From IMG/VR virus record IMGVR_UViG_3300020050_009836, positions 19,861-83,860 of that record: a stretch of DNA of 64,000 bases; one strand, written 5' to 3'. This DNA is from a virus (Duplodnaviria; Caudoviricetes). The notes under the pieces are model-generated. The model was not told where the DNA came from, did no database searches, and was given only the letters and a program-made list of their open reading frames with translations. A program made the position numbers and the translations under genes. Shown piece after piece: positions 38,327-58,452 of this stretch (the stretch's first letter is position 1; each line of letters begins with the position of its first letter).

Positions 38327-38701
38327 ATGGATTTCATAACTATCATCGGTTTGGTGTTTGGGCATTGGTTTGCCGACTTTGTACTACAGTCACGTAAGAT
38401 AGCAGAGAGTAAGTCGAGTAGCCTACGGTCACTGTTTACACATGTAGGCTTGTACACTACTGGTCTTGCTTGTGTGATGGGACCTATTCTCATCATGCAT
38501 CATAGTTGGAGGTTAGTGTTATCCTTCATCTTACTCAATGGCTTCTGCCATCTAGTCACTGACTTTGCTACATCTAAGATGTCGGCGCATGCTTGGCAGT
38601 CAGAGGATAAGAGCCAGTTCTGGAATATCATCGGCTTTGACCAGTCTATCCACTGGAGCCACTTGCTGATTACTTACTTCGGCTTCTTTGTGTGGGGTTA
38701 G
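38327..38701 (+). CDS. DUF3307-like membrane protein
   Basis: HW.ADF.LQ...K..L..HV..Y, H...D and IG.DQ..H motifs. Confidence 0.8.
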   Translation: MDFITIIGLVFGHWFADFVLQSRKIAESKSSSLRSLFTHVGLYTTGLACVMGPILIMHHSWRLVLSFILLNGFCHLVTDFATSKMSAHAWQSEDKSQFWNIIGFDQSIHWSHLLITYFGFFVWG

Positions 38702-38702
38702 T

Positions 38703-39170
38703 ATGTGGCCAAGTAACAGCGGCATAAAGCCAAGACCAAGTGACGAAGATATCTATAAACAAACAACTAAGCAAGTACTTGATAAGTTGGTGGAACTGCG
38801 AGAGAATCGACGTTCATATGAGTGGATAGCATGCTACATGTTTACCAACAACTACCAGTCGCCATATAAGCGCTGGAACGTGAAGTTAGTCAAGTCACTT
38901 CTTTGGTCTCATGGGTTTAAACGGGAAACAATGTACAAGGCTCCGGACTACCGATACTTACTACTCATTGAATCCTTGAAGGCTGATGGCGTGAGTGTTG
39001 ACGATATAGCCGAGCATCTAAACAGCCAAGGTAAGAAGACAGTAAATGGTAATCCGTTTACTGGAAGCTTGGTAAAGCAGTACGTTAGTCGTTACAACGG
39101 ACTCAAGGTCAAGTACGGTGACGATGTTGTTAGGTTTACGAAACCAGTGGAGGAAGACGATGACATTTGA
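38703..39170 (+). CDS. protein with two recombinase-domain-like HTH repeats, no catalytic domain
   Basis: L...G.S...IA..LN..G..T..G..F...LVK pattern occurs twice. Confidence 0.55.
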   Translation: MWPSNSGIKPRPSDEDIYKQTTKQVLDKLVELRENRRSYEWIACYMFTNNYQSPYKRWNVKLVKSLLWSHGFKRETMYKAPDYRYLLLIESLKADGVSVDDIAEHLNSQGKKTVNGNPFTGSLVKQYVSRYNGLKVKYGDDVVRFTKPVEEDDDI

Positions 39171-40584: not shown

Positions 40585-41002
40585 TGTTGACAAACAACCG
40601 GCTAGTGTTGTAAACCGTAAGACCCATGGAAGAATCGAACTGCCTAGGCATGATGACTCATTACTACGTGAGTACTGCCGTAAGAAGCGGTTACTAAACG
40701 GCTGGACGTACGCTTACGTGGGTAGGCAAGTACTACAGCGAAACGGTAAGCCGTACTCAAAGATGAACATCTATAACTGGGTTACTGGACGTATACACTT
40801 CGGACCAGAGTACTCCTTCAAGATGGCTCAAGCATTTCGTGTACATCCAGTGTATGCAGCTTTCCTTATGCGTAGGATTCCAGAGTACGAGTTAGTAGAT
40901 GATTATCCAGATGAGAGTGAGGTCGTTGACTACCTTATGAGCGGCATGCAACAGTTTGGATTTAAGATAAAAGCGGAAGATAAGAAGTATGAAATTATCT
41001 GA
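40577..41002 (+). CDS. XRE-family HTH regulator
   Basis: LREY...RL.NGWT...VG..V......NW..G...A.AF.V. Confidence 0.65.
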   Translation: MSNVDKQPASVVNRKTHGRIELPRHDDSLLREYCRKKRLLNGWTYAYVGRQVLQRNGKPYSKMNIYNWVTGRIHFGPEYSFKMAQAFRVHPVYAAFLMRRIPEYELVDDYPDESEVVDYLMSGMQQFGFKIKAEDKKYEII

Positions 41003-41282
41003 CTATGTGAAGAGACGACGTAAAGAACTAGGGCTAACACAAAAAGAATTAGCTCGTGCCGCTGGTCAAGACTCTGGCTGGATATGCATGCTTGAGACCG
41101 GGTTACGTAACTGTGGTAACCAAACAGCAGAGCCACTAGCCAAGGCGTTAGGTGTACGAGCAGACGTACTACACTTGCTTAGTGGTCACTCACCAGTACT
41201 AGACTTCCGTGATGACATACCCATGGAAGACATAGAGGCTGCCATCGATGAGTTCAAAGCAAAGGTAGCAAACAACTATTAG
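40989..41282 (+). CDS. XRE-family HTH regulator
   Basis: KRRRKELGLTQKELA..AG....I..LE.G.R...LAKALGV. Confidence 0.9.
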   Translation: MKLSDYVKRRRKELGLTQKELARAAGQDSGWICMLETGLRNCGNQTAEPLAKALGVRADVLHLLSGHSPVLDFRDDIPMEDIEAAIDEFKAKVANNY

Positions 41283-41584
41283 CAGGACCAGACTGCCACC
41301 GTCATGCTGTTTGCTGGTAATAGCCTAACTCAGCAGTCCTGTGGTGGTGGGTGAGTAGTTGATTATGCAAAGATATGCTGCATATACAAATCTATATCTA
41401 GGGATGAATTAGGGAATGCCTCTGTAGGTTCAAATTTGGCGATTCTAGGCACTTTGTATACGTTGTGGATACTTTATCCAATATGTACCAAATGTAGCGT
41501 ATTTAGGCAAAATAGATGCCATGTAGACAAAACAAAACCGGATGATTTCTCATCCGGTTTATTACTACGTGGTGGTGGTAGGTT

Positions 41585-41962: not shown

Positions 41963-42285
41963 GATAGGTTCCCTTCAGAGTCAGTGTAGAACGATTTCTA
42001 CATACCGATGTTACCACTTTGTATACGTACTGCAAGAAAATAAACCGACTATTTTCAAGCCGGTATACAATGTACAAATGTTACTGACAGTCACCATGGT
42101 GGTGACGTATAGTCACATAGGATTTTGGCAGGACGGTAGTTGCATAATCAACTGTTGCTAAATCAACTACTTTTGCAACCTACCTAAATATCCTGTGGTG
42201 GCAGCTCGGTGTGACTATTAGTCACATGCCAGTGATAAAGAAAAACCGGTTGGATGTCCAACCGGTTTGGGTACTACGATGTGGA

Positions 42286-44175: not shown

Positions 44176-44411
44176 GGCATTAGTATATCAGATTGTCACG
44201 TATACAAGGGTAAATACGGTGGAGCCAAGAAAAATAAACCGACTATTTTTAGCTCGTTTACCAGTGATAGGTATGGTGACTATTTGTCACTATGGTGACT
44301 ATCAGTCACGTGGTGGATAGCAGGAACAGCTGCCAGCAGTGGAGCCTGTGAGGTGGCATAAAAGAAACCGGTTGGATGTCCAACCGGTTTGGGTACTACG
44401 ATGGATGCCGA

Positions 44412-44744
44412 CTAGTCGGCATCTATTATGGTGGCAACGATTTCGTACCACATGCCACCAAAGTAGACATCGCATTCAAGCGTGTCACTCATTGGCGATG
44501 TGGTGATTTCGATGTGATTGATTTCATTTTCAAGCACATCGGTAAGGATGTGATATGCAAGCACATTCACATCGTGGAATTTGACGCTAGATGCATCATT
44601 TGATGCCAGAAATGCACTCTTGAATTCGAGTGCTGGACATTGGCTCACGATGTTATTTGCCGTGTCTTTGTAGCCAATTTCGGCATAGACATAGCCGGAT
44701 GTGCTATGTGCTTTGTTGATGAGAGAGAGGATAAGTGACTTCAT
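44412..44744 (-). CDS. cassette protein, GGAACC leader
   Basis: AAGGGAACC leader; terminator near 44362. Confidence 0.8.
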   Translation of the reverse strand: MKSLILSLINKAHSTSGYVYAEIGYKDTANNIVSQCPALEFKSAFLASNDASSVKFHDVNVLAYHILTDVLENEINHIEITTSPMSDTLECDVYFGGMWYEIVATIIDAD

Positions 44745-44971
44745 TTTGGGCGGTTCCCTTCGTTACTGGATGGCACGATTGCCATGCCAATATTTTACCA
44801 GATTGTCAACATATCGCACATTTATTTAGTTATTACTGCATAAGGGTATTCCGTTGCATAATCAACTACCGGCGGAGTTAGCAGGAACGGCTCTACGTGG
44901 TCGAACCTGCCATCAGGCATAGAAAAACCGGTTGGATGTCCAACCGGTTGGATACTACGATGTGCTACCGG

Positions 44972-45109
44972 TTATGCACCAGTAGCGATTTTGATTGCCA
45001 TCATCACTAGAATGAACGCCAATCCCGTCATTGCAACGATGTAGTGTGGAATCATTTCCTTGACGGTGTCAGCGTCCGGATTCAACAAAATCTTGATGTG
45101 CTTTATCAT
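44972..45109 (-). CDS. 45-aa membrane peptide (paralogue of 42567..42704)
   Basis: MIKHIKILLNPDADTVKEMIPHYIVAMTGLAFILVMMAIKIATGA. Confidence 0.8.
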   Translation of the reverse strand: MIKHIKILLNPDADTVKEMIPHYIVAMTGLAFILVMMAIKIATGA

Positions 45110-45123
45110 TGTCCTATCCTTTC

Positions 45124-45288
45124 CTATAAACCCATGTAGTGACGCGTCACTAGCACGATGAACGTTACGATGCCACCGGTGAAACCGAGCACAAATGCTC
45201 CGAGTAGTACGGTGAAAACGCCAAATGCGAATGGTGACATGACACGACTATAGTCGATGTCGGTGGTGGTGGTTTCTTTGGTTCCCAT
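45124..45288 (-). CDS. 54-aa membrane peptide, leaderless MGTK start
   Basis: TATAAT-7 nt-ATGGGAACCAAA. Confidence 0.7.
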   Translation of the reverse strand: MGTKETTTTDIDYSRVMSPFAFGVFTVLLGAFVLGFTGGIVTFIVLVTRHYMGL

Positions 45289-45527
45289 GCCTATCATTAT
45301 ACAAGATTGTCAACATATCGCACATTTATTTACGTATTACTTGCGAACTGTTGCATAATCAACAAACGGCAAATTATCCTGTAGTCGGTTTTTGTTGCGA
45401 AATCAAGAATGTGACTTTTGGTCACGTCGAAACCGAGAAAAAGCTCAAAAGTCGTAATTGGCGGTTTCTGCACAGTGCAGGGAGGCGGTCTCCGCCCCCC
45501 CCCTCCCCCCCGCCCCGGTGAAATTTT

Positions 45528-45755
45528 TCAATAATGAAAATCGTACACGCAATCAGCACAGAGGTTTATCTCCTCCGTACGTACGACTTCACCCTTGTAA
45601 TCGTGCTTATGAAGGATGCACTCATACACGTCATTTGCGAGTCCATTATTACAGCAGTCGCAACCCATACGTGTAAAGGTTTTTTCTTCACTATTTGTCA
45701 TGGTGACATTTGCACCGGACATCTCAAGCGAATCCAACATTTCTTCCCAAGTCAT
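45528..45755 (-). CDS. Cys-rich cassette protein (paralogue of 48634..48867)
   Basis: CDCC...C..C; AGGGAACC leader. Confidence 0.8.
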   Translation of the reverse strand: MTWEEMLDSLEMSGANVTMTNSEEKTFTRMGCDCCNNGLANDVYECILHKHDYKGEVVRTEEINLCADCVYDFHY

Positions 45756-45937
45756 TTTTGGTTCCCTCCGTAGCATTTCGCTACATCAATATAATAACAT
45801 GTCTGGTATACAAAGTCAATATATTTCCAAGTAAATGTCTGGACATTCTGGTGGCAGGATATTTTGCTTCCAGCCTCACCTGTGAGAAAACGAAAAAGAA
45901 AAAGCCGGGATTTCTCCCGGCTGCTAGCAGTTGCCTA

Positions 45938-46192
45938 CTAGATACTGCGATAGGCTGCGACAGCTCGCTGCATAGGCTCCAAGTACTCACAGCGGACCAT
46001 GAAAGCTTGCATTTTGAGTGATGCAATTTCGTTTGGCGTTTGTGCATCACGGATACCATCTATCATGATTTCCAGTGCATGCAGCGCATCGGACAAATCA
46101 GAGCTTGGCACAGCATGCATGCGAGCGATAACGGATGCAACGGAGTCGGAGGACGTGTCTACGGAGTCCCAACCGTGTGTAGTGTTTTCCAT
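45938..46192 (-). CDS. leaderless MENTT protein
   Basis: TTGACA-17-TAAGAT-6 nt-ATGGAAAACACTAC. Confidence 0.85.
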   Translation of the reverse strand: MENTTHGWDSVDTSSDSVASVIARMHAVPSSDLSDALHALEIMIDGIRDAQTPNEIASLKMQAFMVRCEYLEPMQRAVAAYRSI

Positions 46193-46366
46193 GTCTATAT
46201 CTTATGCCATAAATGGGAGAATGTCAACAACTATTTTGCATTTACGTGAAATAGTTTTGTTGCATAATCAAACAACTGGCAGCGGCAGGATAGACGGGTA
46301 GTCATGAGTCCTGCTAGTAGGCAAGAAAAGAGCCGGTATTTCTACCGGCTTGACTAGGATAGGTTT

Positions 46367-46597
46367 CTACTTGAAACCTATCCGTTTCCTCCACGTTGGG
46401 GCATTTCTCGGCTCTGAGCGGTACCGCAGCTCTGCATTGCAGTAGTGCATTTCGTCGGAGTAGTAACCGGTATTACTATTCCACGGTTGGAGCTCGATTA
46501 CTTGCTGGCAATCAGCGATTATGTAATTGAGCGAGTGATTCGACAGTGTAGCCGCGTACCGCTGGTACTCGGAATGTTGCATGTGTTTGGTTCCCAT
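46367..46597 (-). CDS. leaderless MGTK cassette protein
   Basis: TTGCAA-17-TAAATT-6 nt-ATGGGAACC. Confidence 0.8.
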   Translation of the reverse strand: MGTKHMQHSEYQRYAATLSNHSLNYIIADCQQVIELQPWNSNTGYYSDEMHYCNAELRYRSEPRNAPTWRKRIGFK

Positions 46598-46763
46598 GCA
46601 TCTAATTTACCATCACTTTGTATACGTTGCAAATGTATTTTGTTGTTAGAGAATAACTATTGAATATGCAACTATCTGTAGAAGAGTGGCAGGACTGCTG
46701 AGTAGGTGTACAGCCTGTCGCTAGGCAAAAGAAAACTCGGATTTCTCCGAGTTAGTTCACTAA

Positions 46764-47018
46764 TCAATAAGTTATGTAAACTGATGTGTGGTGAATGTTG
46801 TCCATCAAAACGCACTCATCCATTACCGTGATGCACCAGCGGTGATGTTCAAATGTCATAAAGTGAGTCCGCTCACCGGTCTTACGGTACCGATTAATAG
46901 CCGTGGTCGCTTTTGTTTCGTATACCTTTGCATATTCCGGCTTGCTACCCGGCAATTCGTCAATGTAAATTTCGTACGTTGGATGCTTGATGCTCACTAG
47001 TGTTGCGATTGTTTTCAT
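46764..47018 (-). CDS. cassette protein, GGAACC leader
   Basis: AGGGAACCAAT-ATG. Confidence 0.8.
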   Translation of the reverse strand: MKTIATLVSIKHPTYEIYIDELPGSKPEYAKVYETKATTAINRYRKTGERTHFMTFEHHRWCITVMDECVLMDNIHHTSVYITY

Positions 47019-47303
47019 ATTGGTTCCCTCACCTAAATATTACCATAGTTTGTATACGTGCACACTATTATTCACTCAATTTCAAAACTATTTTTCAGCG
47101 AGATTTAGGCAGGACAATCAGCCTACTGCCAAGCCTGTCGATGTGACCAGCAGTCACGTGTGACTCAGCGTCACGTTGGTGACTATCAGTCACGGTGACC
47201 AGCCATCACTATGTGAATATGCCCTATACAGGTGGTCTGTGTGGCACCCCCCCCCTCCCCCTGAGCTGGAAAAAGGAAAGCCGGGATTTCTCCCGGCTGG
47301 TGA

Positions 47304-47504
47304 CTACGCTTCGTTGCACGTTGCGCAGTCGTTGCAGATATCTTCATCTGCTATCCAATCATCCTCCCAAACCCAGTCACCGCACTGTGTGCACTGCATG
47401 GTGCTAGGCTCCGCACCGTAGCAATCATCATCCATATCACCCGTCATCATCTCAGCATCCAGCCACGGTGCGATATTCGATTCCAACATCCATTCTTCGT
47501 CCAT
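47304..47504 (-). CDS. acidic Zn-ribbon-like cassette protein
   Basis: CTQC...C..C..C; AGGGAACC leader. Confidence 0.8.
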   Translation of the reverse strand: MDEEWMLESNIAPWLDAEMMTGDMDDDCYGAEPSTMQCTQCGDWVWEDDWIADEDICNDCATCNEA

Positions 47505-47679
47505 TTGGTTCCCTCTTTCCTACACTATTAATATATCATTGCACGTAGACAATGTCAAGAAAATAGACAAAGTATTTTAGTTGCATAATCAACAAACAAC
47601 GGGAATGGCAGGAATGTCGATAGGTATAGCAGCCTGTGATAAAGCAAAAGATAGCCGGGATTTCTCCCGGCTTGAGTTA

Positions 47680-47961
47680 TTAGAAGGGTAAAACCTCCTC
47701 ATCCAACTGCATGAAGATGTCGGCTTCACAGATTTGTAGCACCGGCTCAGTGCACCATGGACGCTCAATAACCACGTCCACTCTAAAGTCAGAGTAATCT
47801 GCCGAGTGCTTTCCAATGACACTTTGAAGCATTTGCTTCGCTAGTACCATTTTGAAATTACGGGTCACTTCGTCCTCAATGTTGAAGCGAAGGGAAACGA
47901 GCGACTCAAGCCGTTCGTCACCACGACCGACGAAGTCGAAATGAAGTGTAGTGTTTTCCAT
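47680..47961 (-). CDS. leaderless MENTT protein
   Basis: TAAGAT-6 nt-ATG. Confidence 0.85.
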   Translation of the reverse strand: MENTTLHFDFVGRGDERLESLVSLRFNIEDEVTRNFKMVLAKQMLQSVIGKHSADYSDFRVDVVIERPWCTEPVLQICEADIFMQLDEEVLPF

Positions 47962-48099
47962 GTCTATATCTTATCACACTTTGTCAATACTGCAAGAACT
48001 ATTTTATGCAAGGGTGAGGCTTGGCAGGAGTAGCACCGAGCATGACAGCCTGTCATGAGACATAAAAAGAGCCGGTATTTCTACCGGCTGGTGGATGTC

Positions 48100-48429
48100 C
48101 TAGACTGCGAGTCCAAGACATCCGATAACGGCTCCCGTGGAGTCCCGTACGAGTCCGTGTGGACTCACAAGGTCGATTCTATGTGAAGCGGCTGCTTTCA
48201 CGAGTCCCGACACAATATACCGAGTCCCCTTGATTGGTTCAGGAAGTCCGGTGATATCACCGTATGCTACACCGAATACGGGGATTTTCCCGTTCACAAG
48301 TGCAGTCTGCACCTCTTGGGTTTCGACACGTGCCACACGCCCATTTGCTGGGAATGTGTGGATGATATTGCCATTTGGCGATACCACACGGATTGCGTGT
48401 GGAGTGAGATTGATAAAGCGAGTCTGCAT
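48100..48429 (-). CDS. conserved phage protein (NLTPH motif)
   Basis: INLTPH..G.VARV..GLP.P...IVS..V; GGAGGGGAACC leader. Confidence 0.8.
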   Translation of the reverse strand: MQTRFINLTPHAIRVVSPNGNIIHTFPANGRVARVETQEVQTALVNGKIPVFGVAYGDITGLPEPIKGTRYIVSGLVKAAASHRIDLVSPHGLVRDSTGAVIGCLGLAV

Positions 48430-48633
48430 GGTTCCCCTCCGAAGTGGATTAGGTTGTTTCCTATCCACACACTAATAATACCATACCTATTGACAATGTC
48501 AAGCGATATTGCAAACTATTTCGTATTTTGTTGTTTGATTATTCAAATAGATGTAAGGCTTGGCAGGACTAACACCTAGTATGGCAGCCTGTCATGAGGC
48601 ATAAAAAGAGCCGGGATTTCTCCCGGCTTTCGC

Positions 48634-48867
48634 CTATTCACCGTAGTGGAAGATACACAGACACTCAGCACATATGCTAACTTCTTCGGTTCGTACCACT
48701 TCACCGGTGTAATCGTGCTTGTGTAGTACACAGTCGTACACATCGTTCCCTAATCCATCGTTGCAACAATCGCAACCCAATCGGCGGAATGAGCGTTCTT
48801 CGCTGCCGGTCATCGTGACATTAGCACCGGACAATTCGAGCGAGTCTAGAAATTCTTCCCAAGTCAT
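48634..48867 (-). CDS. Cys-rich cassette protein (paralogue of 45528..45755)
   Basis: Colinear with and highly similar to its paralogue. Confidence 0.85.
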   Translation of the reverse strand: MTWEEFLDSLELSGANVTMTGSEERSFRRLGCDCCNDGLGNDVYDCVLHKHDYTGEVVRTEEVSICAECLCIFHYGE

Positions 48868-49009
48868 TTTCGTGGTTCCCTTTATAGCACTTGGCTACAC
48901 TAGAATAATACCATACTGGTAGACAAAGTCAAGAAGTATTTAGTTATTAGATAATAGTTGAATCCGCAACGACAGGAGTTGCTACCACTCAGTAGTCCTG
49001 CCATCCGGC

Positions 49010-49168
49010 TCAATCCTCCTTTCCTTTGTGCTTTGCTTTCCGGCTGTACTCACGTTTGTTGTCATACGTCATCGATTTCTGCCACGGGCGGTCACTAGCC
49101 GGTATCCGTGATTTCACGGCTGTACGGGCATTCTGGAGCTCTGTGGAGGTAAGTTTAATTGTTTTCAT
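49010..49168 (-). CDS. 52-aa basic peptide, ArfA-like C-terminus
   Basis: Manual translation ends YDNKREYSRKAKHKGKED; AAGGGAACC leader. Confidence 0.65.
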   Translation of the reverse strand: MKTIKLTSTELQNARTAVKSRIPASDRPWQKSMTYDNKREYSRKAKHKGKED

Positions 49169-49219
49169 TTGGTTCCCTTTCAAAGATAGAGCCGGTATCT
49201 CTACCGGCTCATTGAGTGA

Positions 49220-49444
49220 CTAATCTATGTTGATGTTTCCGTGCTTGACACAGAGTGCATCGTAGATTTCCTGACCGTTTTCAGTGAGTGATTCATACCC
49301 TCTGTGAAGTGGTGAGATGCGAAACTGCATCCGTTGCAACCTACCGAATACACGGTAGATAGGGCAATTGACACCACCGTGCCAATCACAAGCGAACGTG
49401 TAATACGCTTCGCAGATATCAAACCGGTTCCATTCTGTCATCAT
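49220..49444 (-). CDS. cassette protein
   Basis: RFDICEAYY..WHGG motif; AGGGAACC leader. Confidence 0.8.
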   Translation of the reverse strand: MMTEWNRFDICEAYYTFACDWHGGVNCPIYRVFGRLQRMQFRISPLHRGYESLTENGQEIYDALCVKHGNINID

Positions 49445-49625
49445 AACTTGGTTCCCTCTTTCCTACATCAACAATATACATTGACACGGTTACAATGTCA
49501 AGAAGTATTTAGTTATTAGGTAATAGTTGAATCCGCAACGACAGGACTTACTACTCAGTATCGAGCCTGTCATCAGGCAAAGGGAAAGCCGGGATTTCTC
49601 CCGGCTTTCATTCTAGGGAACCAAC

Positions 49626-49790
49626 CTAGAAAATCCTAGGGATTAAGGTTCCAACGTAGATTAGTAGCACAGCGACTCCGAGATACGCTCTGTCCTTGCG
49701 ATGCATCGCTGCAAACAACAAAGCCAACAAACCGATTCCAGATATCCCGGTGAACGATACTAACCTTGACAAATCTTCTATGATTATCAT
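49626..49790 (-). CDS. 54-aa membrane peptide
   Basis: Manual translation, 2 hydrophobic segments, own promoter. Confidence 0.7.
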   Translation of the reverse strand: MIIIEDLSRLVSFTGISGIGLLALLFAAMHRKDRAYLGVAVLLIYVGTLIPRIF

Positions 49791-49919
49791 TTTTCCCCTA
49801 TCCCTTCCTACACTATAATAATACCACGTATATTGACAAAGTCAAGGGAATATACAAACTATTTTCAGCCTATCTATCCTGTCATCCAGACAAAAAAAGA
49901 GAGCCTTTCGGCTCTCCTC

Positions 49920-50129
49920 CTACTTTGTTGGCTTCACCTCCACAGCGGTAAATTTTTGCTCTAAGACATCCATTAGTTGACCAACAGCGTTATCAAATTC
50001 AGCGAACGCCGTGCGAAGTGCAGAATCCTTTGGCTCTAACTTACGGTAGATTTGCCATGCCGTCTCACACGCCTCATTGACGTGAGTGAAAAGCCGTTGC
50101 TCGTTTGTTGTTGGTGTAGTGTTTTCCAT
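49920..50129 (-). CDS. leaderless MENTT protein
   Basis: TAAGAT-6 nt-ATG. Confidence 0.85.
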   Translation of the reverse strand: MENTTPTTNEQRLFTHVNEACETAWQIYRKLEPKDSALRTAFAEFDNAVGQLMDVLEQKFTAVEVKPTK

Positions 50130-50258
50130 GCCTATATCTTATCAGACTTTGTCAATAATGCAAGAGAATATACGAACTATTTTCAGAATGCATAAGCAGC
50201 AGGAGTCGCTACCTACTAGTAGTCCTGCTAGTAGGCATAAAAAAAGAGCCTTTCGGCT

Positions 50259-50486
50259 CTACTCTGCACTTGCCTCCTCCTCTTTCAACTTTGTGAGCGT
50301 GTCATTAAACAGCTCACGGTCTATCACGTTCATCAAAGCGCCAAGTGCACTTTCATACGCCGTGTAGCATAGTTGCACCGTATCGGACTTATCCTTGGCT
50401 TTCATGTATGCCATAAAAGGTGCGTGGCTGCTTTCACACAACGCTTTGTACAACGCTCCCAATTCCGCTCTTTGTTGTTCTGTCAT
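50259..50486 (-). CDS. cassette protein, GGAACC leader
   Basis: Complete cassette. Confidence 0.8.
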   Translation of the reverse strand: MTEQQRAELGALYKALCESSHAPFMAYMKAKDKSDTVQLCYTAYESALGALMNVIDRELFNDTLTKLKEEEASAE

Positions 50487-50663
50487 TTCGGTTCCCTATC
50501 CCTTTCCTACACTAATAATATACCATGCCACGTATACAATGTCAAGTAAATAGATGAACTATTTTAGTTGCATAATCAACTATCTTCACCGGGACGGCAG
50601 GATGGGATACCTATAGTGGAGCCTGTCGTAAGGCATAAAAAAAGGAGCCTTTCGGCTCCTCCT

Positions 50664-50870
50664 CTACATCGCTCTTACTTTATCTACCCACTCTGCTACC
50701 TGAGCGAATGAAAGGTGCCCGTGCACATCATTTAGGATTTCTCCATTGTGCATCACAGCGATTTCGAAAAGTCCGGTTTCCGCACCGTACGATACTCCCG
50801 GTTTGCAGATGATGGATATCGTGTATCCATTTGGGAAAGTGATTTTGTTGTCGTAGTAAGTTTGTGTCAT
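50664..50870 (-). CDS. cassette protein, long GTAGG..AGGGAACC leader
   Basis: Complete cassette. Confidence 0.8.
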   Translation of the reverse strand: MTQTYYDNKITFPNGYTISIICKPGVSYGAETGLFEIAVMHNGEILNDVHGHLSFAQVAEWVDKVRAM

Positions 50871-51046
50871 TTCGGTTCCCTTTATAGGCTAGGCTTGCTT
50901 CCTTCCTACACCTATATATTACCATACTAGTAGACAAAGTCAAGTAAATATACAAAGTATTTTTGTTGTTTATGCAACAAAGTACAGATGATGGCAGGAG
51001 CTACACCACGCATGGCAGCCTGTCACTAGGCAAAGAAAAAGGGAGC

Positions 51047-51181
51047 CTAAGCTCCCTTGGTCCTTATCGCCGCATCGAGTATCCGGCACACTTCCTTGTA
51101 CCGAGCCGTACTGGTCTTACAGTAGCATTCAAGGGATAGTTTTTCCCATGTAAGTGTTTTTATGATTTCGTCGATTTCCAT
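51047..51181 (-). CDS. 44-aa protein, second gene of a cassette
   Basis: SD AAGGGGG; follows a hairpin lacking a U-tract. Confidence 0.55.
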   Translation of the reverse strand: MEIDEIIKTLTWEKLSLECYCKTSTARYKEVCRILDAAIRTKGA

Positions 51182-51229
51182 CTGTTTCCCCCTTGTGAAG
51201 TGTAGCCGGGATTTCTCCCGGCTCACACC

Positions 51230-51490
51230 TTAGAAGCGACTGTAGTCTACTTTGAGGTTGCATGCGTCTTTGAACCTACCTTCAAAGTACTCGCCACGAC
51301 TGACGGTATTAGGGTCATTACTACTGAGCATTGCCATTATTGACATCTCAGCGATTGCCATAATGCTACCGAGTTTGTAACCGATGTGAACCGGCTCGCT
51401 TTCGACGGCTACGGCTACGGCTACGGTGGTGCTATCACTAGCGGTGTCTACGACGTCCCAGCCTACTGGGTTAGCGGTAGTGTTTTCCAT
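51230..51490 (-). CDS. leaderless MENTT protein
   Basis: TTGACT-16-TAATAT-6 nt-ATG; shares GWD.VDT.SDS with 45938..46192. Confidence 0.85.
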   Translation of the reverse strand: MENTTANPVGWDVVDTASDSTTVAVAVAVESEPVHIGYKLGSIMAIAEMSIMAMLSSNDPNTVSRGEYFEGRFKDACNLKVDYSRF

Positions 51491-51675
51491 ACACTAATAT
51501 TACCATACTAGTAGACAAAGTCAAGAAAATAGATGAACTATTTTTACTTGCATATGCAACGACCAACCTTAGCAGGAAAGTGAACCTAGGTACAGTCCTG
51601 CCACTGGGATGTGACTATCCGTCACCATGATGACTATCCGTCACGTATGTAGAACACAAAAAAAGCCTAGGCGTT

Positions 51676-51984
51676 CTACCTAGGCTTGCTCATTGCAGGT
51701 CGTCTGGGTTGCACCCCCCCTCTACGAGAGAGAGAGGTATTCCCGTGAGTGATTTGTCCGGTCTCTACCATTTCGTGAACATACTTTGCGATGTCACGTG
51801 CATCCCACTTGTAGAACCCAAAGTCGATATCGGATGTCACGCCTTCGGTATCAGCGTAGTAAATTTCCATAGTCTCATCCGCATCCATCACGAGAACGGA
51901 TGCATTATCACGCTCTGCGGACATATTGACGTAGTATTCGGTATAACCGAGACCGTCACGATTTGGAACCTTCACTGTTGGCAT
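51676..51984 (-). CDS. cassette protein
   Basis: The promoter lies inside the longer track ORF, so the start is revised to MPTVK. Confidence 0.7.
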   Translation of the reverse strand: MPTVKVPNRDGLGYTEYYVNMSAERDNASVLVMDADETMEIYYADTEGVTSDIDFGFYKWDARDIAKYVHEMVETGQITHGNTSLSRRGGVQPRRPAMSKPR

Positions 51985-52050
51985 TTCTTTGTACCCTTCC
52001 TTCACATATATATTACCATACTTTGTCAATGTGTCAAGGAAATATGTAAA

Positions 52051-52320
52051 CTATTTTTCAGGCGTCCGGTAGGCAGGGTCTATCATAGGCAGCCACTCCT
52101 GTTCAAGCCACTTCATGAGTTGCTTGTAATCCACTCCGGTATACACAGCTCTACCATCGGTGAACAAAGTGACCCTACGACGGTTCCTGTAAGGGTAGAG
52201 GCTAACTCCTACCGTCATTCCTAGGCTATACGCTAGGTTTACGAGCTTGGTGAACAAAGTCCCGTCATGCATGAAAAAGCCTCTAGATTCGGCATCTAGA
52301 GGCTTGTGGAGGCTATTCAA
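52051..52320 (-). CDS. cassette protein (second gene)
   Basis: Coupled to 52317..52700. Confidence 0.55.
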   Translation of the reverse strand: MNSLHKPLDAESRGFFMHDGTLFTKLVNLAYSLGMTVGVSLYPYRNRRRVTLFTDGRAVYTGVDYKQLMKWLEQEWLPMIDPAYRTPEK

Positions 52321-52700
52321 TACGATGGCCGGAAGATGCCAGCCGTTGCATTGGCGGTACCACGTGCATCGTGTTCGGCGTCAAGGTTTACCCTCCACTG
52401 TGCATCTTCGTATTCGCCTAAGATAGCACGGGACATTTTTGTCTGTCTGCCGATTCTGCCAGCAAACTCAAATTTGTCAAAGTAATTCGAGTCAATGAGT
52501 GAATCTACCGCTTCACCATCCACATAGATGGTAGGCACACACTCTGCATTCAATTCTGCATGAATGATGAAATAGTCATTTCGCTCATTGGAGTCATACT
52601 CAAATCCCTCTGGCTTTGGATACACGTTAAGGTATGCAAATACATAACCTTCAGTGAGTCCATCGATGATTACTTCCCGGCTCAAATAATAAAACTTCAT
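52317..52700 (-). CDS. cassette protein, GGAAGGGAACC leader
   Basis: Complete 5' module. Confidence 0.8.
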   Translation of the reverse strand: MKFYYLSREVIIDGLTEGYVFAYLNVYPKPEGFEYDSNERNDYFIIHAELNAECVPTIYVDGEAVDSLIDSNYFDKFEFAGRIGRQTKMSRAILGEYEDAQWRVNLDAEHDARGTANATAGIFRPSY

Positions 52701-52898
52701 ATCGGTTCCCTTCCTACATCAATAATATACACCATGCCGTTTACAATGTCAAGAAAATAGACAAACTATTTTTCAGTTGATTATGCAACTACAACGGAAG
52801 TGGCAGGAGTGACTCACAGTCACTAAGCCTGTCACAAGGCACAAAAAAGTGGATGGAAGCGATTCGCCGTGCTTCCATCCACTTATCGGGATAACGCT

Positions 52899-53129
52899 CT
52901 ATTCGAACGTTACGAAACCGACTACCAGCATGCCACTAGGCTTGATTACCAGCATGTCGCCGGTATTTTCCACGCGGCATCGGTGATTCGTCAAATCCAG
53001 CTCGGCTTTGACACGTCGCATGATTTGCGACTGAGTGGCATCGGATGCCATTTCAAACTCACCACGCTTCACCCAACTGTAGTTGGCTTGACCACCAAAC
53101 GTGTCCGTCAACTCAAATCGTACTGTCAT
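52899..53129 (-). CDS. cassette protein (TDTFGG.ANYSW motif)
   Basis: Long leader; terminator near 52846. Confidence 0.8.
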   Translation of the reverse strand: MTVRFELTDTFGGQANYSWVKRGEFEMASDATQSQIMRRVKAELDLTNHRCRVENTGDMLVIKPSGMLVVGFVTFE

Positions 53130-53324
53130 TTTGGTTCCCCTTGTAGATTAGGCTGATTCCTATCTACATCTACAATATACACCACCTAGTAGACAAAGTC
53201 AAGAAGTATTTAGTTATTAGGTAATATTTGAATATGCAACTACCTTTGACTTGATGGCAGGACTACCACTCAGTATGGCAGCCTGTAAGCCGGACAAAAA
53301 AAAGGAGCCTTTCGGCTCCTCCTC

Positions 53325-53582
53325 CTACCCTTCGTCTTCGTCTTCGATTTCGTTCGCTTCGTTTATCGCGGCGGCGATTTCTTCGAAGTCTACAGCACTG
53401 ATGTAGGTTTCAATGATGTCATTGTAGAGTGAACCCGCCTCCACTCCAGCCGGTGCCAAGTCACGCACCATATTTTCCACTTCATCTGCCGATACCTTGG
53501 AGTCTTCACCGATGAATACATCCATGATGTGGAGTGAACAGTTCCACGTTTCGTAGTTCGTCCAACCGTTGTAGTTGCTCAT
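53325..53582 (-). CDS. YNGWxNxxTW-motif phage protein (paralogue of 55817..56083)
   Basis: YNGWTNYETW. Confidence 0.85.
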   Translation of the reverse strand: MSNYNGWTNYETWNCSLHIMDVFIGEDSKVSADEVENMVRDLAPAGVEAGSLYNDIIETYISAVDFEEIAAAINEANEIEDEDEG

Positions 53583-53846
53583 TTTGGTTCCCTTAGTAGA
53601 TTAGGCTGTTTCCTACCTACACTATAATATTACAGCCTACGTAGACAAAGTGCAAGGTTTATTTTTAGCATTTACTTATTAGTTGTTTGTATTTGATTTA
53701 GCAACTAAATTTTGTTCACAGGATTGGCTAGAGGTCACAGCTCCTGTTACACTGAGTAGCCGGATGATACTCCAGTTGTCCGAGCATCATAACAACTACC
53801 GTTCCATGGAGAAAAGGAGCATCCTAGGATGCTCCTTTTTAGTTGT

Positions 53847-54116
53847 CTACTTGACTTCGTCGAAGGTTGAACGGATTACGCCGCCGTGGTTGTAGAGAAA
53901 CTTGCAGATGATGTGGAGGTTCGTAGCACTCCATCTATCCGCACGATTCATGGCATCCATTAGGTCATTTCTTAGCACTGCATCCAAGAAGCCACCAAGC
54001 ATCATCGTGGTGCGATATTGCACAAAGCCTTCGAAGGCTTGGATGTAAGATGCGATGCAAGCGTATTCATTACGAGTTTCTTCGCTGATGTTCAGCGGGT
54101 TGTTAGTGTTTTCCAT
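53847..54116 (-). CDS. leaderless MENTN protein
   Basis: TGG-TACTAT-5 nt-ATGGAAAACACT; start revised from the track. Confidence 0.8.
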   Translation of the reverse strand: MENTNNPLNISEETRNEYACIASYIQAFEGFVQYRTTMMLGGFLDAVLRNDLMDAMNRADRWSATNLHIICKFLYNHGGVIRSTFDEVK

Positions 54117-54342
54117 ACCTAATAGTACCATAGTTGACAAAGTATGCCAGCATTCTGGAACATTTATTTTCAAGCAGAAGTTGACAGGCTCGGAGCCTAC
54201 TCATAAGTCCTGCCAATGTGACTTCTGGTCACCATGATGGCTGTCCGTCACATCCATCAACAACAAAAAAGCCTAGGATTCCACCTAGGCTTTGCACAAT
54301 GCAAGGCGTGTGTCTTCGCCCCCCCTCCCCCCAACGGGGAGC

Positions 54343-54606
54343 CTACAGTTCAAGTACCGTGTAGGAATACTCCTCATTATTGTCAAGTCGCACGGTTAGC
54401 GACACATCGCCGTAGAGTGACCCTTCAAACATCGGGTCGTATGTCATGCCATACCGTGAGAGGTATTCGTGCACACATGCCTCAAGTTCCTCATTTGTGT
54501 TAGCGTCTACGGAACCGACAACCTTAAGTGGTTGACCGTATCCGATTTCGCCGGGAGTGCCTTCGAAGATTTCGATTACTAAGAATCGTGCTGTAGTGTT
54601 TTCCAT
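54343..54606 (-). CDS. leaderless MENTT protein
   Basis: TTGCAA-16-TAATAT-6 nt-ATG. Confidence 0.85.
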   Translation of the reverse strand: MENTTARFLVIEIFEGTPGEIGYGQPLKVVGSVDANTNEELEACVHEYLSRYGMTYDPMFEGSLYGDVSLTVRLDNNEEYSYTVLEL

Positions 54607-54744
54607 GACTATATATTACCATAGATTGTCAACATTGCAAGAACTATTTTAGTTAATTATTCACTGTACGGCGATAACAGGTTATTCAGTGAATAAGGCA
54701 GCCTGTAAGGAGGTAAAGAAAAAGGAGCCTTTCGGCTCCTCCTC

Positions 54745-55011
54745 CTATCCAATCACTTCGATAACTTGGTCCGAGTAGCACCAACGGAGTCCGCTAGTGT
54801 GTGGTCCATCAACGACCTTTATAGTGAACACAGCGAGCTGCTCAGCTAGATTCACCCTATTGACCTTCAAACCATCCTTGGCTCGCTGTTGGCCAGTGGC
54901 TTCGATTTCGATTACCACGGCACGGCGTTCCGGTTCCATACCGAAGCAACCACGCCACATGATGATGTCGCCGACTGTAATCGTTCGGCTCTGGGTAGTA
55001 GTGTTTTCCAT
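54745..55011 (-). CDS. leaderless MENTT protein
   Basis: TTGACA-17-TAATAT-6 nt-ATG. Confidence 0.85.
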   Translation of the reverse strand: MENTTTQSRTITVGDIIMWRGCFGMEPERRAVVIEIEATGQQRAKDGLKVNRVNLAEQLAVFTIKVVDGPHTSGLRWCYSDQVIEVIG

Positions 55012-55340
55012 GCCTATATATTAGCCCATAACAGACACATTGTCAATAGGCTTTAGTTGTTTTTGTAGATATATTTTCAGTCGGTTCAGGGACAGCTGTG
55101 GCAGCCTGTAGTAGTTCAGATAGAGAAAAAGGAGGTAGATTTCTCTACCTCCTCCTCCAGTCGGGAACCAACCGACAATCGTTCGCCGAGCTGCGATGCT
55201 CTAGGCTTATAAAGGTTATATCGTGTAGGCTCACATTTGCCAAATCTAGAGGCTAAAAGAGTGGATGCTAACTATGAGCGGGTTAGCATCCACTATCATC
55301 CCTATGGTAAACACCACGAAAACCATAGGGACATCAGATA

Positions 55341-55616
55341 CTAGCGTTTGGCTAGTAAGTCAGCGTATCCGACAATCATCGTGTCAAGATACGGGTCGTT
55401 GCAGACTTCATCCACGATGATATCGTTGGTGTTTTCTTGCACAGCGACTTCAAACCAGTGGCGAAGTGCAGAGATATGCACAGCGTTGAGGTCTTCGACG
55501 GCGGTATTCACCAAGTCGATACCCAACTCATTTTTGATGCACTCAAGGTGCGACTCCGTCAATGTCCCGTGCATCTGGAAGTTGATGCTAACGCTTCCCG
55601 TGATTGTGAACTCCAT
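55341..55616 (-). CDS. cassette protein with hybrid leader AGGGAACC-GAAAACACT-ATG
   Basis: Both initiation motifs occur in the 5' UTR. Confidence 0.8.
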   Translation of the reverse strand: MEFTITGSVSINFQMHGTLTESHLECIKNELGIDLVNTAVEDLNAVHISALRHWFEVAVQENTNDIIVDEVCNDPYLDTMIVGYADLLAKR

Positions 55617-55816
55617 AGTGTTTTCGGTTCCCTCTGTAGGCTAGGCTTCTTCCTTCCTACATCACTAATATATCCCATACTGTAGACAATGTCAAGAAAA
55701 TAGATGAAGTATTTTTAGTTGCATAGTCAACAAACAACATAGGCGGCAGGATGTGACTAGTGGTCACACAGCCTGTAGGTAGGCAAAAAAAGGAGGAGCC
55801 TCTCGGCTCCTCCTCA

Positions 55817-56083
55817 CTACTCCGCTTCCTCCTCTTCGCTCTTCTCCCGGTCGTCGTTGATGTGCTTGACGATTTCCCGCCAATCCACTTGCTCTAGGTG
55901 GTCGTTTATGAGCCACTGAGCGTAATCATTACCGGCGGTGCCTATCCACTCGGCTACGAGCTCTTCGGCGGTGTCCGGCTCCATATCGGCTCCGGCTTCA
56001 TTGGCGATGTCTAGGAGGCTCTCGCCGAAGTTCAGCGATACATGCCATGTGTCCCAGTTCTTCCATCCGTTGTATCCACTCAT
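55817..56083 (-). CDS. YNGWxNxxTW-motif phage protein
   Basis: YNGWKNWDTW; start revised to MSGY. Confidence 0.85.
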   Translation of the reverse strand: MSGYNGWKNWDTWHVSLNFGESLLDIANEAGADMEPDTAEELVAEWIGTAGNDYAQWLINDHLEQVDWREIVKHINDDREKSEEEEAE

Positions 56084-56286
56084 TGTCGGTTCCCTTAGTA
56101 GGCTAGGCTTGTTCCTTCCTACACTATTAATATACAGCATACGTTGACAATGTGCAAATGAATTACCAAAAATAAATAAAGAATGTTAGTTGACTAATCA
56201 ACGAGCTACGACGGCTTTACAGGCTGCCATAGTAAGCTGATATCCTGCCATCAGGCAAAGAAAAAGGAGCCTCTCGGCTCCTCCTC

Positions 56287-56502
56287 CTATAACCCTTCGT
56301 TGAACTCTTTGACTACTTGGTTAAAGAGTCTGTCGTTTGCTTCCGTGTACTTCCGGAACTCTTCACGTAGCTTGCGGATTAGTTCCGCCTTGCTTACTGT
56401 GTCGTCGAATTCAACGTCATTTACGACGTATGAAACATTGAATGCGTGGTGCGTTGCGACTGTTAGACGCTTTTGCGTGTAGTCGGTAGTAGTGTTTTCC
56501 AT
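56287..56502 (-). CDS. leaderless MENTT protein
   Basis: TTGACA-17-TAATAT-6 nt-ATG. Confidence 0.85.
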   Translation of the reverse strand: MENTTTDYTQKRLTVATHHAFNVSYVVNDVEFDDTVSKAELIRKLREEFRKYTEANDRLFNQVVKEFNEGL

Positions 56503-56545
56503 GTCTATATATTACCCTTACTTTGTCAATGTGTCAAGTCTTTTT

Positions 56546-56800
56546 TCAACTATTTTGAAAATAAGTCTCATAAATGTCTTTGTGACCCGTTGCCTTTTCG
56601 TACAAGTCATCCGACCGCTTTGTGTAGCGGTTCCATGTGGCGACAAGAGCGTCAAGCATCTCATCCCGTTGGATTTCCTTGTTTACGCTTGCTCTGCACA
56701 GCAAGAGGTACATTTCGCCTACGGCATCCACAGCGATGTTTTCACGCTCTGCTGTGTACTCTGCCATTGTCAACGGTTGGGTTTGTGTAGTGTTTTCCAT
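56546..56800 (-). CDS. leaderless MENTT protein
   Basis: TTGACA-17-TAAGAT-6 nt-ATG. Confidence 0.85.
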   Translation of the reverse strand: MENTTQTQPLTMAEYTAERENIAVDAVGEMYLLLCRASVNKEIQRDEMLDALVATWNRYTKRSDDLYEKATGHKDIYETYFQNS

Positions 56801-56970
56801 GTCTATATCTTACAGCACTTTGTATACTATGTCAAGGAGTTTTTGAAGTATTTTCAAAGCACTTTTAGCAGGAGCTGCTACCAGCATACTAACCTGCCAC
56901 AAGGAAAGCAAAAGAGCCGGTAGGCTGTAGACCTACCGGCTTTCTCTACCGTCGCACCACCGACGGATTC

Positions 56971-57300
56971 CTATATTTCCGTCGCTTGTAAACACTTTCG
57001 TGATGTGTCATTCAACTGAGCATCACCGTGGAAATGAGCCGGTTGTGAGCGTTGGATAGTCCATTTTTCAATGATACTAGACTTGATGTGCTTGACTTGA
57101 AAGTCGATAGCACGACCGTAATTCTTCTCCGACCAGTTCTGCAACACATAGCCGTTTTCGGATGCGTATTGACTAGCGTAGGTATCCATACGGGTATGCC
57201 ATGCTACGTCTACATCCATGACATCGATGATAAGAGGAGTCGGGTACGTGCTCGTTGTGAGCATGAAGACAACTTTCGTTGTGAGTGTAGTGTTTTCCAT
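56971..57300 (-). CDS. leaderless MENTT protein
   Basis: TTGACA-17-TAACAT-6 nt-ATG. Confidence 0.85.
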   Translation of the reverse strand: MENTTLTTKVVFMLTTSTYPTPLIIDVMDVDVAWHTRMDTYASQYASENGYVLQNWSEKNYGRAIDFQVKHIKSSIIEKWTIQRSQPAHFHGDAQLNDTSRKCLQATEI

Positions 57301-57503
57301 GACTATATGTTAGCCCATAAAATAGACTTTGTCAATAACTATTTCAACTATTTTTTACTTGCATAATCAACAACAAAAGAGTGTTAGCAGGATAGGTGAC
57401 GTACAGTCAAGCCTGTAAAGGTGGGATGTGACCCAGAGTCACCATGATGTCTGTCAGTCACATACCAGAGCAAAGAAAAAGCCGGGATTTCTCCCGGCTT
57501 GGA

Positions 57504-57767
57504 TTACATCCCCTTCTCTACAGCGAGCTCTAGAGCCTTCTCTGTGAGGTACCAGCCGTACTTTTTCATGTCTGGTTCGTAGCCGACTAGTCCAGCCTCT
57601 TGTGCGCCAGAGATAACACCGCCGGTCTTCTCGGCACTCCAGCCGGTCACCTCAGACACCATACACGCACCAAACCAAGAATGGTTGTCACCTTGAAGTT
57701 GCTCTGCCGTTTCGTACGGGCTATCGGCGATTACCACTTCTATCAAACGAGTCTGCAATTCAGTCAT
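57504..57767 (-). CDS. cassette protein (possible winged helix)
   Basis: Long leader; terminator near 57480. Confidence 0.8.
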   Translation of the reverse strand: MTELQTRLIEVVIADSPYETAEQLQGDNHSWFGACMVSEVTGWSAEKTGGVISGAQEAGLVGYEPDMKKYGWYLTEKALELAVEKGM

Positions 57768-58052
57768 TTTGGTTCCCTCAGTAGGCTAGGTCAGTTCCTT
57801 CCTACACATACATAATAAGGCATAGATTAGACTTTGTCAACAACTATTTTGACTATTTTTTGCACGTTTACCAGTGATAGGTATGGTGACGTTTGGTCAC
57901 GGGTATCTTTACAGGTTCGACTCCGATGTGACTATCCGTCACCATAGTGACTATCCGTCACGTCCAAAGCAAAAAGAAAACCACCAGACGTAGCCTAGTG
58001 GTTGCACAATGCAGGTACGAGTCTTTGCACCCCCCCCGCCCCCCGGCAGAGC

Positions 58053-58301
58053 CTACACCTCTTCGGTGTAAGCATCTACCTCTACAAGGATTTTGTCGAT
58101 GATGTATGCGGCTTGGAGAACGTTGACGGTGTGGTCACAGTCCGCTTCAAGCTGTGCAATGCACGGTCCACCTTCACGGTGGTTAGCAGAGCATCCATTA
58201 TGCCCCTCACAGCAAGGGTGAAACATGTACTCTGGTGCTTGCTCGTTGACGTGGAAGCGGATGTACTCGGCGGTACCGTAGGTAACTTGTGTAGTGTTCA
58301 T
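58053..58301 (-). CDS. leaderless MNTT protein, Cys/His-rich
   Basis: TTGACA-17-TAATAT-6 nt-ATG. Confidence 0.8.
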   Translation of the reverse strand: MNTTQVTYGTAEYIRFHVNEQAPEYMFHPCCEGHNGCSANHREGGPCIAQLEADCDHTVNVLQAAYIIDKILVEVDAYTEEV

Positions 58302-58452
58302 GCCTATATATTACAGCACATTGTCAACGTTGTCAAGTAGTATTTTGTTGTTTGTTTATGATGGATACAACTAGTCACGGAGAAGTATCACAGGATAGAT
58401 GAGTAGGTGTATGACCTGTAATCACCCAAAAAGAAAAGGAGCCTTTCGGCTC

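Follow-up and report, generated by a model that had tools for sequence, protein, structure and literature searches.

A two-fold symmetric box of fixed spacing between the early-gene cassettes of an uncultured freshwater phage lineage

The early region of an 84-kb uncultured freshwater phage (Duplodnaviria; Caudoviricetes) consists of small gene units, nearly all of them separated by a short inverted sequence, CAGG-N20-CCTG, here called the box, which raises the question of what keeps its two words at one fixed distance. The window is the whole stretch of 64,000 nucleotides that was analysed, bases 19861–83860 of the 83,860-bp IMG/VR virus record IMGVR_UViG_3300020050_009836 (the focal phage, G000), which is complete according to CheckV. 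The reading favoured here, with a rough probability of 0.5, is that the box would be bound as duplex DNA by a protein of two-fold symmetry (one dimer or two paired dimers) and would serve as a boundary, a roadblock or a collective silencer of early genes. The binder is probably encoded by the phage.

The window contains 25 copies of CAGG-N20-CCTG, compared with 0.61 expected from dinucleotide shuffles (maximum 4), and one further copy with a spacer of 21 nt at 55747 (Table 1). All 25 coordinates listed by the initial annotation, as well as that of the N21 copy, proved exact on recount. No copy with a spacer of N15–19 or N22–25 occurs in the window, the other 19.9 kb of the focal genome have no box, and the pattern read backwards gives zero copies. 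A second complete phage, G001 (82.5 kb, ~75–80% nucleotide identity to the focal phage), carries 29 boxes in the same region, every one N20, and 19 related metagenome contigs (77–97% identity), recovered by a metagenome scan for the box together with the terminator, add 151 N20 copies and three N21 copies. Pooled over 255 kb of related DNA, N20 is found 205 times and N21 four times, and any other spacing between 12 and 30 occurs at most four times.

To avoid a bias toward intact sites, orthologous sites were located via the flanking alignments of every focal box. Both words and their spacing are kept at 112 of 116 orthologous positions; two of the four exceptions concern the atypical copy at 52074, and the others are one deletion and one alignment shift. 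Over 34 orthologous groups, pairs of copies show no mismatch in the words, against means of 8.9% for the interior and ~4.5% for the 40-nt flanks, so that the interior diverges twice as fast as its surroundings. In addition, two or more gap events separate the members of 105 box pairs that agree at 16 or more of 20 positions in gapped alignment (1–2 such pairs in shuffles), and these offsetting indels bring the spacer back to N20. Purifying selection on the eight bases and on the spacing is, judged from these comparisons, strong. The strict spacing claimed by the initial annotation is thus borne out by the pooled counts, the offsetting indels and the orthologous sites, and spacer length, whose lack of conservation in relatives would have spoken against that annotation, is clearly conserved there (205 N20 vs 4 N21).

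Base preferences computed on 145 distinct copies define a conserved half-site wider than CAGG, namely Y-G-R-CAGG-A/C-T, mirrored on both sides. Position -2 is T or C in 135 of these copies, with the same preference on the mirrored side; position -1 is G in 99 (mirrored side, G in 89); position 0 is a purine in every case on both the left and the mirrored side; position 5 is A in 112 (mirrored side, C in 82 and A in 49); and position 6 is T-rich on both. Positions -2, -1, 0, 5 and 6 are mirrored in base preference by positions 31, 30, 29, 24 and 23, respectively, and a weak mirrored preference is also present near the centre, at positions 12–13 and 16–17 (A/C-C ... G-T/G). C is never found at position 0 because CCWGG is absent throughout the genome; the absence of T is not explained in this way. 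With the promoter facing one flank of the box and the terminator the other, a symmetric reader best accounts for the mirrored preferences.

This symmetry is not accompanied by pairing. Mirrored positions form Watson-Crick combinations no more often than independence predicts, in and outside the box, no interior register among all those tested pairs above expectation, and the folding energy of the boxes is only ~2 standard deviations below that of interior shuffles. Symmetry without pairing covariation favours recognition of duplex DNA and disfavours a hairpin, for which the tests of covariation, pairing registers and folding energy gave no support past 4 bp. A smaller hairpin between a terminator-tail GCCT and the AGGC of the box was also considered and rejected, as the covariation is weak (75 vs 60.8 expected) and the tail is not especially conserved in orthologues. 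Neither an avoidance of half-sites, proposed for the genome-wide depletion of CAGG/CCTG (observed/expected ~0.6) and explained by the total lack of CCWGG, nor a sigma54-like reading of TGGCAGG, whose spacing to any GC element is unsuitable as judged by eye, was retained. The box interiors are related by descent, and their central dinucleotides are of 14 different kinds among 129 distinct boxes, the commonest, TA, being found 29 times. The 'free interior' of the initial annotation is only roughly right, in view of the wider half-site, the weak central preference and the relatedness of the interiors by descent. Its proposal that a protein contacts two half-sites gains indirect support from the strict spacing, the two selected half-sites and the symmetry without pairing covariation.

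The placement of the box bears on its function. The genes of the box region are on the minus strand and form small early-gene units, in which, in the direction of the genes, a small gene is followed by an intrinsic terminator, a stretch of ~9 nt often holding GCCT, the box, a stretch often holding a TTGATTATGCAAC-like word and an A-rich run, and a near-consensus sigma70 promoter; after the promoter comes a leader with GGGAACC or a leaderless ATG. About 21 minus-strand promoters (10–11 of 12 consensus matches) and about 21 minus-strand terminators are present, each cassette having its own promoter; promoter matches number 44 vs 24.7 in shuffles, and terminator matches 34 vs 10.7. The distance from the terminator T-run to the box is 9 nt in 25 of 55 copies and 8–11 nt in 31, the remaining copies having either an intervening GTGAC-N5-GTCAC module or no detected T-run, and the 9-nt distance holds over at least six terminator hairpin types. 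Between the box and the next -35, by contrast, lie anywhere from 33 to 68 nt. A fixed distance past the T-run and a variable distance to the -35 fit a boundary function better than promoter control. The position between a terminator and the next promoter, as initially annotated, applies to most copies; three copies (48973, 52074 and 53719) have no upstream terminator, and at five junctions a GTGAC-N5-GTCAC module is interposed between the terminator and the box.

The sequence of the site, the way it is mirrored, the constraint on its spacing and its position lead us to infer protein binding with the following consequences. Each subunit would read an outer half-site, Y-G-R-CAGG-A/C-T, and touch the DNA more weakly one helical turn inward; the geometry of the protein would set the 20-nt spacing and so leave the interior free to drift. 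The bound protein might meet RNA polymerase paused on the T-run, help termination, act as a roadblock to read-through and thereby insulate each unit. Alternatively, once the early phase is over, the many bound sites might jointly silence the early region or compact it. Several observations weigh against this reading. The half-site centres lie 24–26 bp apart (~2.3–2.5 turns), which is unusual for simple dimers and would call for an extended or DNA-bending protein. The equivalent element in other phages of this architecture is a perfect palindrome of 21–26 nt, with substitutions mirrored in all 13 copies of one group. Also, terminator, tail and box could have descended together as one module, so that their constant distance need not reflect function, and the variable distance to the promoter argues against a classical activator or repressor.

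If the box were instead a recombination site that moves cassettes, either as the crossover site of a site-specific recombinase (an analogue of attC or res) or as a cut site at which a phage nuclease seeds exchange between co-infecting relatives, the mosaic cassette content of relatives would follow readily; this is considered unlikely. In a breakpoint map made against the closest relatives (93–98% identity), ~19 of 26 sharp breakpoints lie within -50 to +40 nt of a box. The homology of cassette A6/B12 stops inside boxes on both sides, and some junctions change partner at box position 8|9 or 13|14. Furthermore, the 28-bp length and the recognition of outer ends are like those of small serine-recombinase crossover sites, and the phage has PDDEXK, VRR-NUC and YqaJ nucleases together with a stand-alone Recombinase-domain protein. 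The breakpoints are, however, heterogeneous: they are seen at the promoter-gene or terminator-gene border, at -48, -24, -13, -8 to -10 and -2 relative to the box, at box positions 8|9, 9, 13|14, 18 and 22, at the right edge of the box and from +5 to +38, with only 3 of 26 inside the box and the largest group in the repeated terminator tail and hairpin. When alignment ends were scanned without bias, their enrichment near boxes was only mild (32% vs ~21%). Two neighbouring cassettes are swapped between 47636–48564 and L074:324–1349 of a 97%-identical relative, the overlaps consisting of the right part of the box and the terminator, and this swap and a 345-nt deletion are flanked by overlaps of 45–70 nt, repeats of this length being the signature of homologous recombination. 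Six-frame searches of both complete phages gave no match to PF00239 (serine recombinase; control genomes match) or, at E <= 0.1, to PF00589 (tyrosine recombinase; 14 of 14 control genomes match). Boxes differ in their central dinucleotide, a hairpin is lacking, and self-cutting at 26 genomic sites would be costly. Breakpoints scattered over the terminator-box-promoter module, no recombinase in either phage, no hairpin past 4 bp and cassettes with promoters of their own do not support the attC analogue suggested by the initial annotation, and the breakpoint mapping it had proposed yields many positions from -48 to +38 and no single crossover point. The box lies inside an exchange zone, not at a precise crossover site, and the shuffling pattern is of the type described for PeSL cassettes (see below), driven by homology via repeated regulatory sequences. 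It is improbable that the box is a working part of a recombinase-free cassette-exchange platform in a lytic phage, in which a phage protein (the Recombinase-domain protein or a nuclease) would bind or nick half-sites and repair from a co-infecting relative would swap units, giving scattered breakpoints.

Action as a folded single strand has little probability in its favour, whether the hairpin forms in RNA, where read-through transcripts would carry it as a signal for processing or stability, or in DNA that is single-stranded or cruciform. CAGG and CCTG are able to pair, folding is good for a few copies (-14.3 and -11 kcal/mol), the mean energy is ~2 standard deviations below that of shuffles, and the three copies without an upstream terminator must be transcribed; a structural role is kept as a rival chiefly since phages of the same architecture have perfect palindromes with mirrored substitutions in the same slot. 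Most copies, however, form only a 4-bp stem closing a 20-nt loop, covariation is absent at any mirrored position or register, and the flank preference Y-G-R / Y-C-R is mirrored without being paired, G-T and A-C at the pair 0/29 being as common as chance. Moreover, most copies follow a strong terminator, with over 33 nt still to go to the next -35, so that they would rarely be transcribed, and a search with the curated covariance models of Rfam 15 returned no family match, with only four sub-threshold chance matches in 41000–64000. The box could also have no function of its own and merely be the best-conserved stretch of a duplicated intergenic module, as it is often duplicated with the terminator tail as one unit (48025 and 48564). 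Neutral hitch-hiking of this kind cannot hold eight bases at 112 of 116 sites while the interior changes at twice the rate of the flanks, nor can it restore spacer length after indels, and this reading is close to refuted.

Known systems resemble the array in part. In T4-type phages, PeSL (promoter-early stem-loop) cassettes are exchanged by homologous recombination in repeated promoter-terminator sequences, where crossovers occur at variable points (Arbiol et al., 2010, PMC2839356; Comeau et al., 2014, PMC4122927). As in the present array, the early region is plastic and contains a series of small ORFan genes, every gene having a strong sigma70-type promoter on one side and a stem-loop terminator on the other, and relatives differ by insertion, deletion or replacement of whole units with crossovers inside repeated regulatory sequences. 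The defining traits of PeSL, a sigma70-like promoter beside a terminator stem-loop and indels or replacements with crossovers in regulatory repeats, are found in the focal phage, which has recombination genes of its own (YqaJ exonuclease and SSB). Unlike PeSL, which has two parts, terminator and promoter, the focal phage has between them a third, separately conserved element of fixed spacing; kinship of the focal phage to T4-type phages is not demonstrated. On this comparison the box array would be a PeSL-type early architecture plus an added, separately selected bipartite element.

For that added element, several protein-bound sites offer partial parallels. Stoperators are mentioned for cluster A mycobacteriophages (PMC12266134). 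Like the box, they occur as dozens of copies of one site in short intergenic spaces of a transcribed phage region; they are protein-bound and block elongating RNA polymerase away from promoters, as the box may do. Stoperators of L5 gp71 are reportedly 13-bp asymmetric, orientation-dependent sites of the immunity repressor of temperate phages, and asymmetry is what the bipartite, two-fold symmetric box lacks; the focal phage also has no integrase. The sites of phi29 p4 are short inverted words with a fixed spacer, of which the outer ends are read. The p4 protein is made early in infection and reorganises the early and late promoters of the phage (PMC3100819). Its sites share with the box the inverted words, a fixed spacer of ~1.5–2 helical turns and little requirement for spacer sequence, but phi29 has only four, all in one promoter cluster, and their spacer is 15 bp and their distance to the promoters fixed. 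A p4 homologue did not turn up in the focal phage, where no search aimed at p4 was made.

Integron attC sites are likewise repeated elements with conserved inverted ends and a variable middle at gene-cassette boundaries. They work in folded, single-stranded form, their R and L boxes being paired (the R''/R' and L''/L' hairpin), depend on IntI, a tyrosine recombinase, and flank promoterless cassettes, none of which holds for the box. Crossover sites of small serine recombinases are 28 bp (res site I) or 26 bp (hix/gix) long. The box matches them in total length (26–28 bp), two-fold symmetry, presumed outer-end contacts and a tolerant interior, but the focal phage has no resolvase or invertase match (PF00239), the central dinucleotide is not conserved and there are 26 sites per genome. 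The OB sites of plasmid RK2 are contiguous 13-bp palindromes bound by KorB, a global repressor of the ParB family. As with the box, many palindromic copies lie at variable distances from promoters, in that case silenced ones, and the focal phage encodes two ParB_N proteins; these are only candidates for the box, which is not a contiguous 13-bp palindrome like OB.

The focal phage encodes in the window a major head protein, a portal and a large terminase; its nucleotide and DNA metabolism proteins include ThyX, SSB and dUTPase, its recombination and nuclease proteins include YqaJ exonuclease, a Mu Gam-like protein and PDDEXK, VRR-NUC and SNase nucleases, and it has two DNA methyltransferases (one C5, one MT-A70) and two ParB N-domain proteins (a ParB_N-DUF4417 protein and a small ParB_N protein). 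The closest named phages are distant (terminase <=41% identity, capsid <=28%), megablast against isolated phages found no match, and a primase protein search for relatives also found none. The exact conserved box used as a query recovered only G001, and an extended-box scan across IMG/VR found arrays in G001 only. The element is lineage-specific, confined to one uncultured freshwater lineage.

In viral contigs of lower GC (IMG/VR, GC 33–38%; L038, L040, L043, L044, L036 and L041), chosen for comparison by a leaderless ATGGAAAACACTAC start, there is no CAGG box. The same slot, between terminator and promoter, holds other palindromes: (T/C)AGGnAYGGTA ... TACCRTnCCT(A/G), ~24 nt, in one group; TAAAAAATTCTATAGAATTTTTTA or TAACAAATT...AATTTGTTA in a second; and TAAAAAATC-N3-GATTTTTTA in a third. 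These palindromes are perfect, with mirrored substitutions in all 13 copies of one group, which fits hairpin or cruciform formation, or palindrome correction; in the focal lineage, interior pairing is gone and the ends and length are kept. Protein homology between these contigs and the focal phage was not found, and they are therefore regarded as analogues in architecture, not as shown relatives. A different palindrome in the slot of other phages is what would be expected if the site co-evolves with its own factor. The ATGGAAAACACTAC leaderless start lies 6–7 nt after the -10 box, several times per contig, and a conserved terminator hairpin, ATCCCTTGAC-N4-GTCAAGGGAT, is common to the six contigs; together these suggest a host-specific initiation signal.

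Candidate binders are present in both complete phages, namely an XRE-type protein, a 160-aa protein with the DNA-binding domain of serine recombinases (Table 1) and the ParB-like proteins, none of them tied to the box by evidence. The XRE protein has a recognition helix conserved in G001 (57% overall identity). The 160-aa protein has two tandem recombinase-type helix-turn-helix-like repeats (PF07508), a domain found in 24 of 30 of its atlas neighbours; it is 43% identical to its G001 counterpart, a large protein search gave only close relatives (68–96% identical), and its predicted structure is a poor model (pLDDT 63). The ParB_N-DUF4417 protein is 92% identical in G001.

A second inverted repeat of fixed spacing, GTGAC-N5-GTCAC, occurs in 24 copies at 42102–63764 of the window, only in the early region (for example at 44276, 44295, 47143, 47160, 47179, 51611, 57928 and 57947), and in 23 copies in G001; the same words at N3, N4, N6 or N7 are absent. 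It is often in tandem, with pairs 17–19 nt apart between terminator and box. It resembles a classical operator, possibly for the XRE protein at 40989–41282, which its 15-bp sites suit better than the box does.

Most of the unknown and rapidly changing genes of phages are found in their early regions, and many of these genes are probably directed against host defences; how dozens of such units are insulated, jointly switched off and exchanged is poorly understood outside T4-type phages. The box offers a clean handle on this problem, with eight invariant bases, a spacer defended against indels and ~26 copies per genome. If a dedicated factor binds it, phage early cassettes would have, in addition to promoter and terminator, a third part that is separable from both, and the box might be a compact natural transcription insulator.

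Table 1. Positions in the window of the cassette array, the boxes and two candidate binders.
Feature	Position	Strand	Basis or remark
Cassette array, ~26 monocistronic early units (promoter, small ORFan gene, intrinsic terminator), box-separated	44321..58418	-	Promoter, terminator and Pfam searches
Box N20	44321..44348	.	Terminator 16 nt upstream in gene direction; GTGAC-N5-GTCAC pair on promoter side
Box N20	44882..44909	.	Pattern count and layout
Box N20	45855..45882	.	Pattern count and layout
Box N20	46286..46313	.	Pattern count and layout
Box N20	46690..46717	.	Pattern count and layout
Box N20	47110..47137	.	Three GTGAC-N5-GTCAC sites between terminator and box; L047/L049 homology breakpoint at box position 8|9
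Box N20	47609..47636	.	Pattern count and layout
Box N20	48025..48052	.	Box and terminator module paralogous to 48564 copy
Box N20	48564..48591	.	Box and terminator module paralogous to 48025 copy
Box N20	48973..49000	.	No upstream terminator; promoter side and box positions 1-13 common to 49542 copy
Box N20	49542..49569	.	Missing at orthologous place in G001
Box N20	50200..50227	.	Pattern count and layout
Box N20	50598..50625	.	Pattern count and layout
Box N20	50995..51022	.	Pattern count and layout
Box N20	51573..51600	.	Same sequence in G001 and five other contigs
Box N20, atypical	52074..52101	.	No upstream terminator; orthologue CTTG in G001 and L060
Box N20	52804..52831	.	GTGAC-N5-GTCAC site within box
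Box N20	53258..53285	.	Same sequence in G001
Box N20	53719..53746	.	Immediately after stop codon, no terminator
Box N20	54185..54212	.	Interior orientation opposite to most copies
Box N20	54678..54705	.	Pattern count and layout
Box N21	55747..55775	.	GTGAC-N5-GTCAC site within box; G001 orthologue is N20
Box N20	56220..56247	.	Interior orientation opposite to most copies
Box N20	56869..56896	.	Pattern count and layout
Box N20	57388..57415	.	Pattern count and layout
Box N20	58391..58418	.	First by transcription order
XRE-type helix-turn-helix protein, 97 aa; candidate binder, more likely for GTGAC-N5-GTCAC	40989..41282	+	HTH_31 2e-8, HTH_3 1.8e-7
Stand-alone serine-recombinase 'Recombinase' DNA-binding domain protein, 160 aa, no catalytic domain; weak candidate binder	38688..39170	+	PF07508 22.1 bits (cut-off 21.1)

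Among the ~40 cassette open reading frames, the only Pfam match is DUF7249, found twice, in paralogous minus-strand genes at 53325–53582 and 55817–56140. A degenerate box, CTGG-N20-CCTG, lies at 41314–41341, at the far end of the early region, and its CTGG is kept in G001 (position 62452). C-rich runs of the form CCCCCCCCTCCCCC occur in some junctions (45490–45515 and 47245–47262; in G001, 70880 and 80599), once replacing a box. Also, both complete phages lack GATC (~600 expected, both strands), CCWGG (65 expected) and CCTCG/CGAGG (41 expected), and GGCC, CGCG and AGCT are 4–10-fold depleted in both; this avoidance of restriction sites is extreme, although the focal phage also has its own C5 and MT-A70 methyltransferases.

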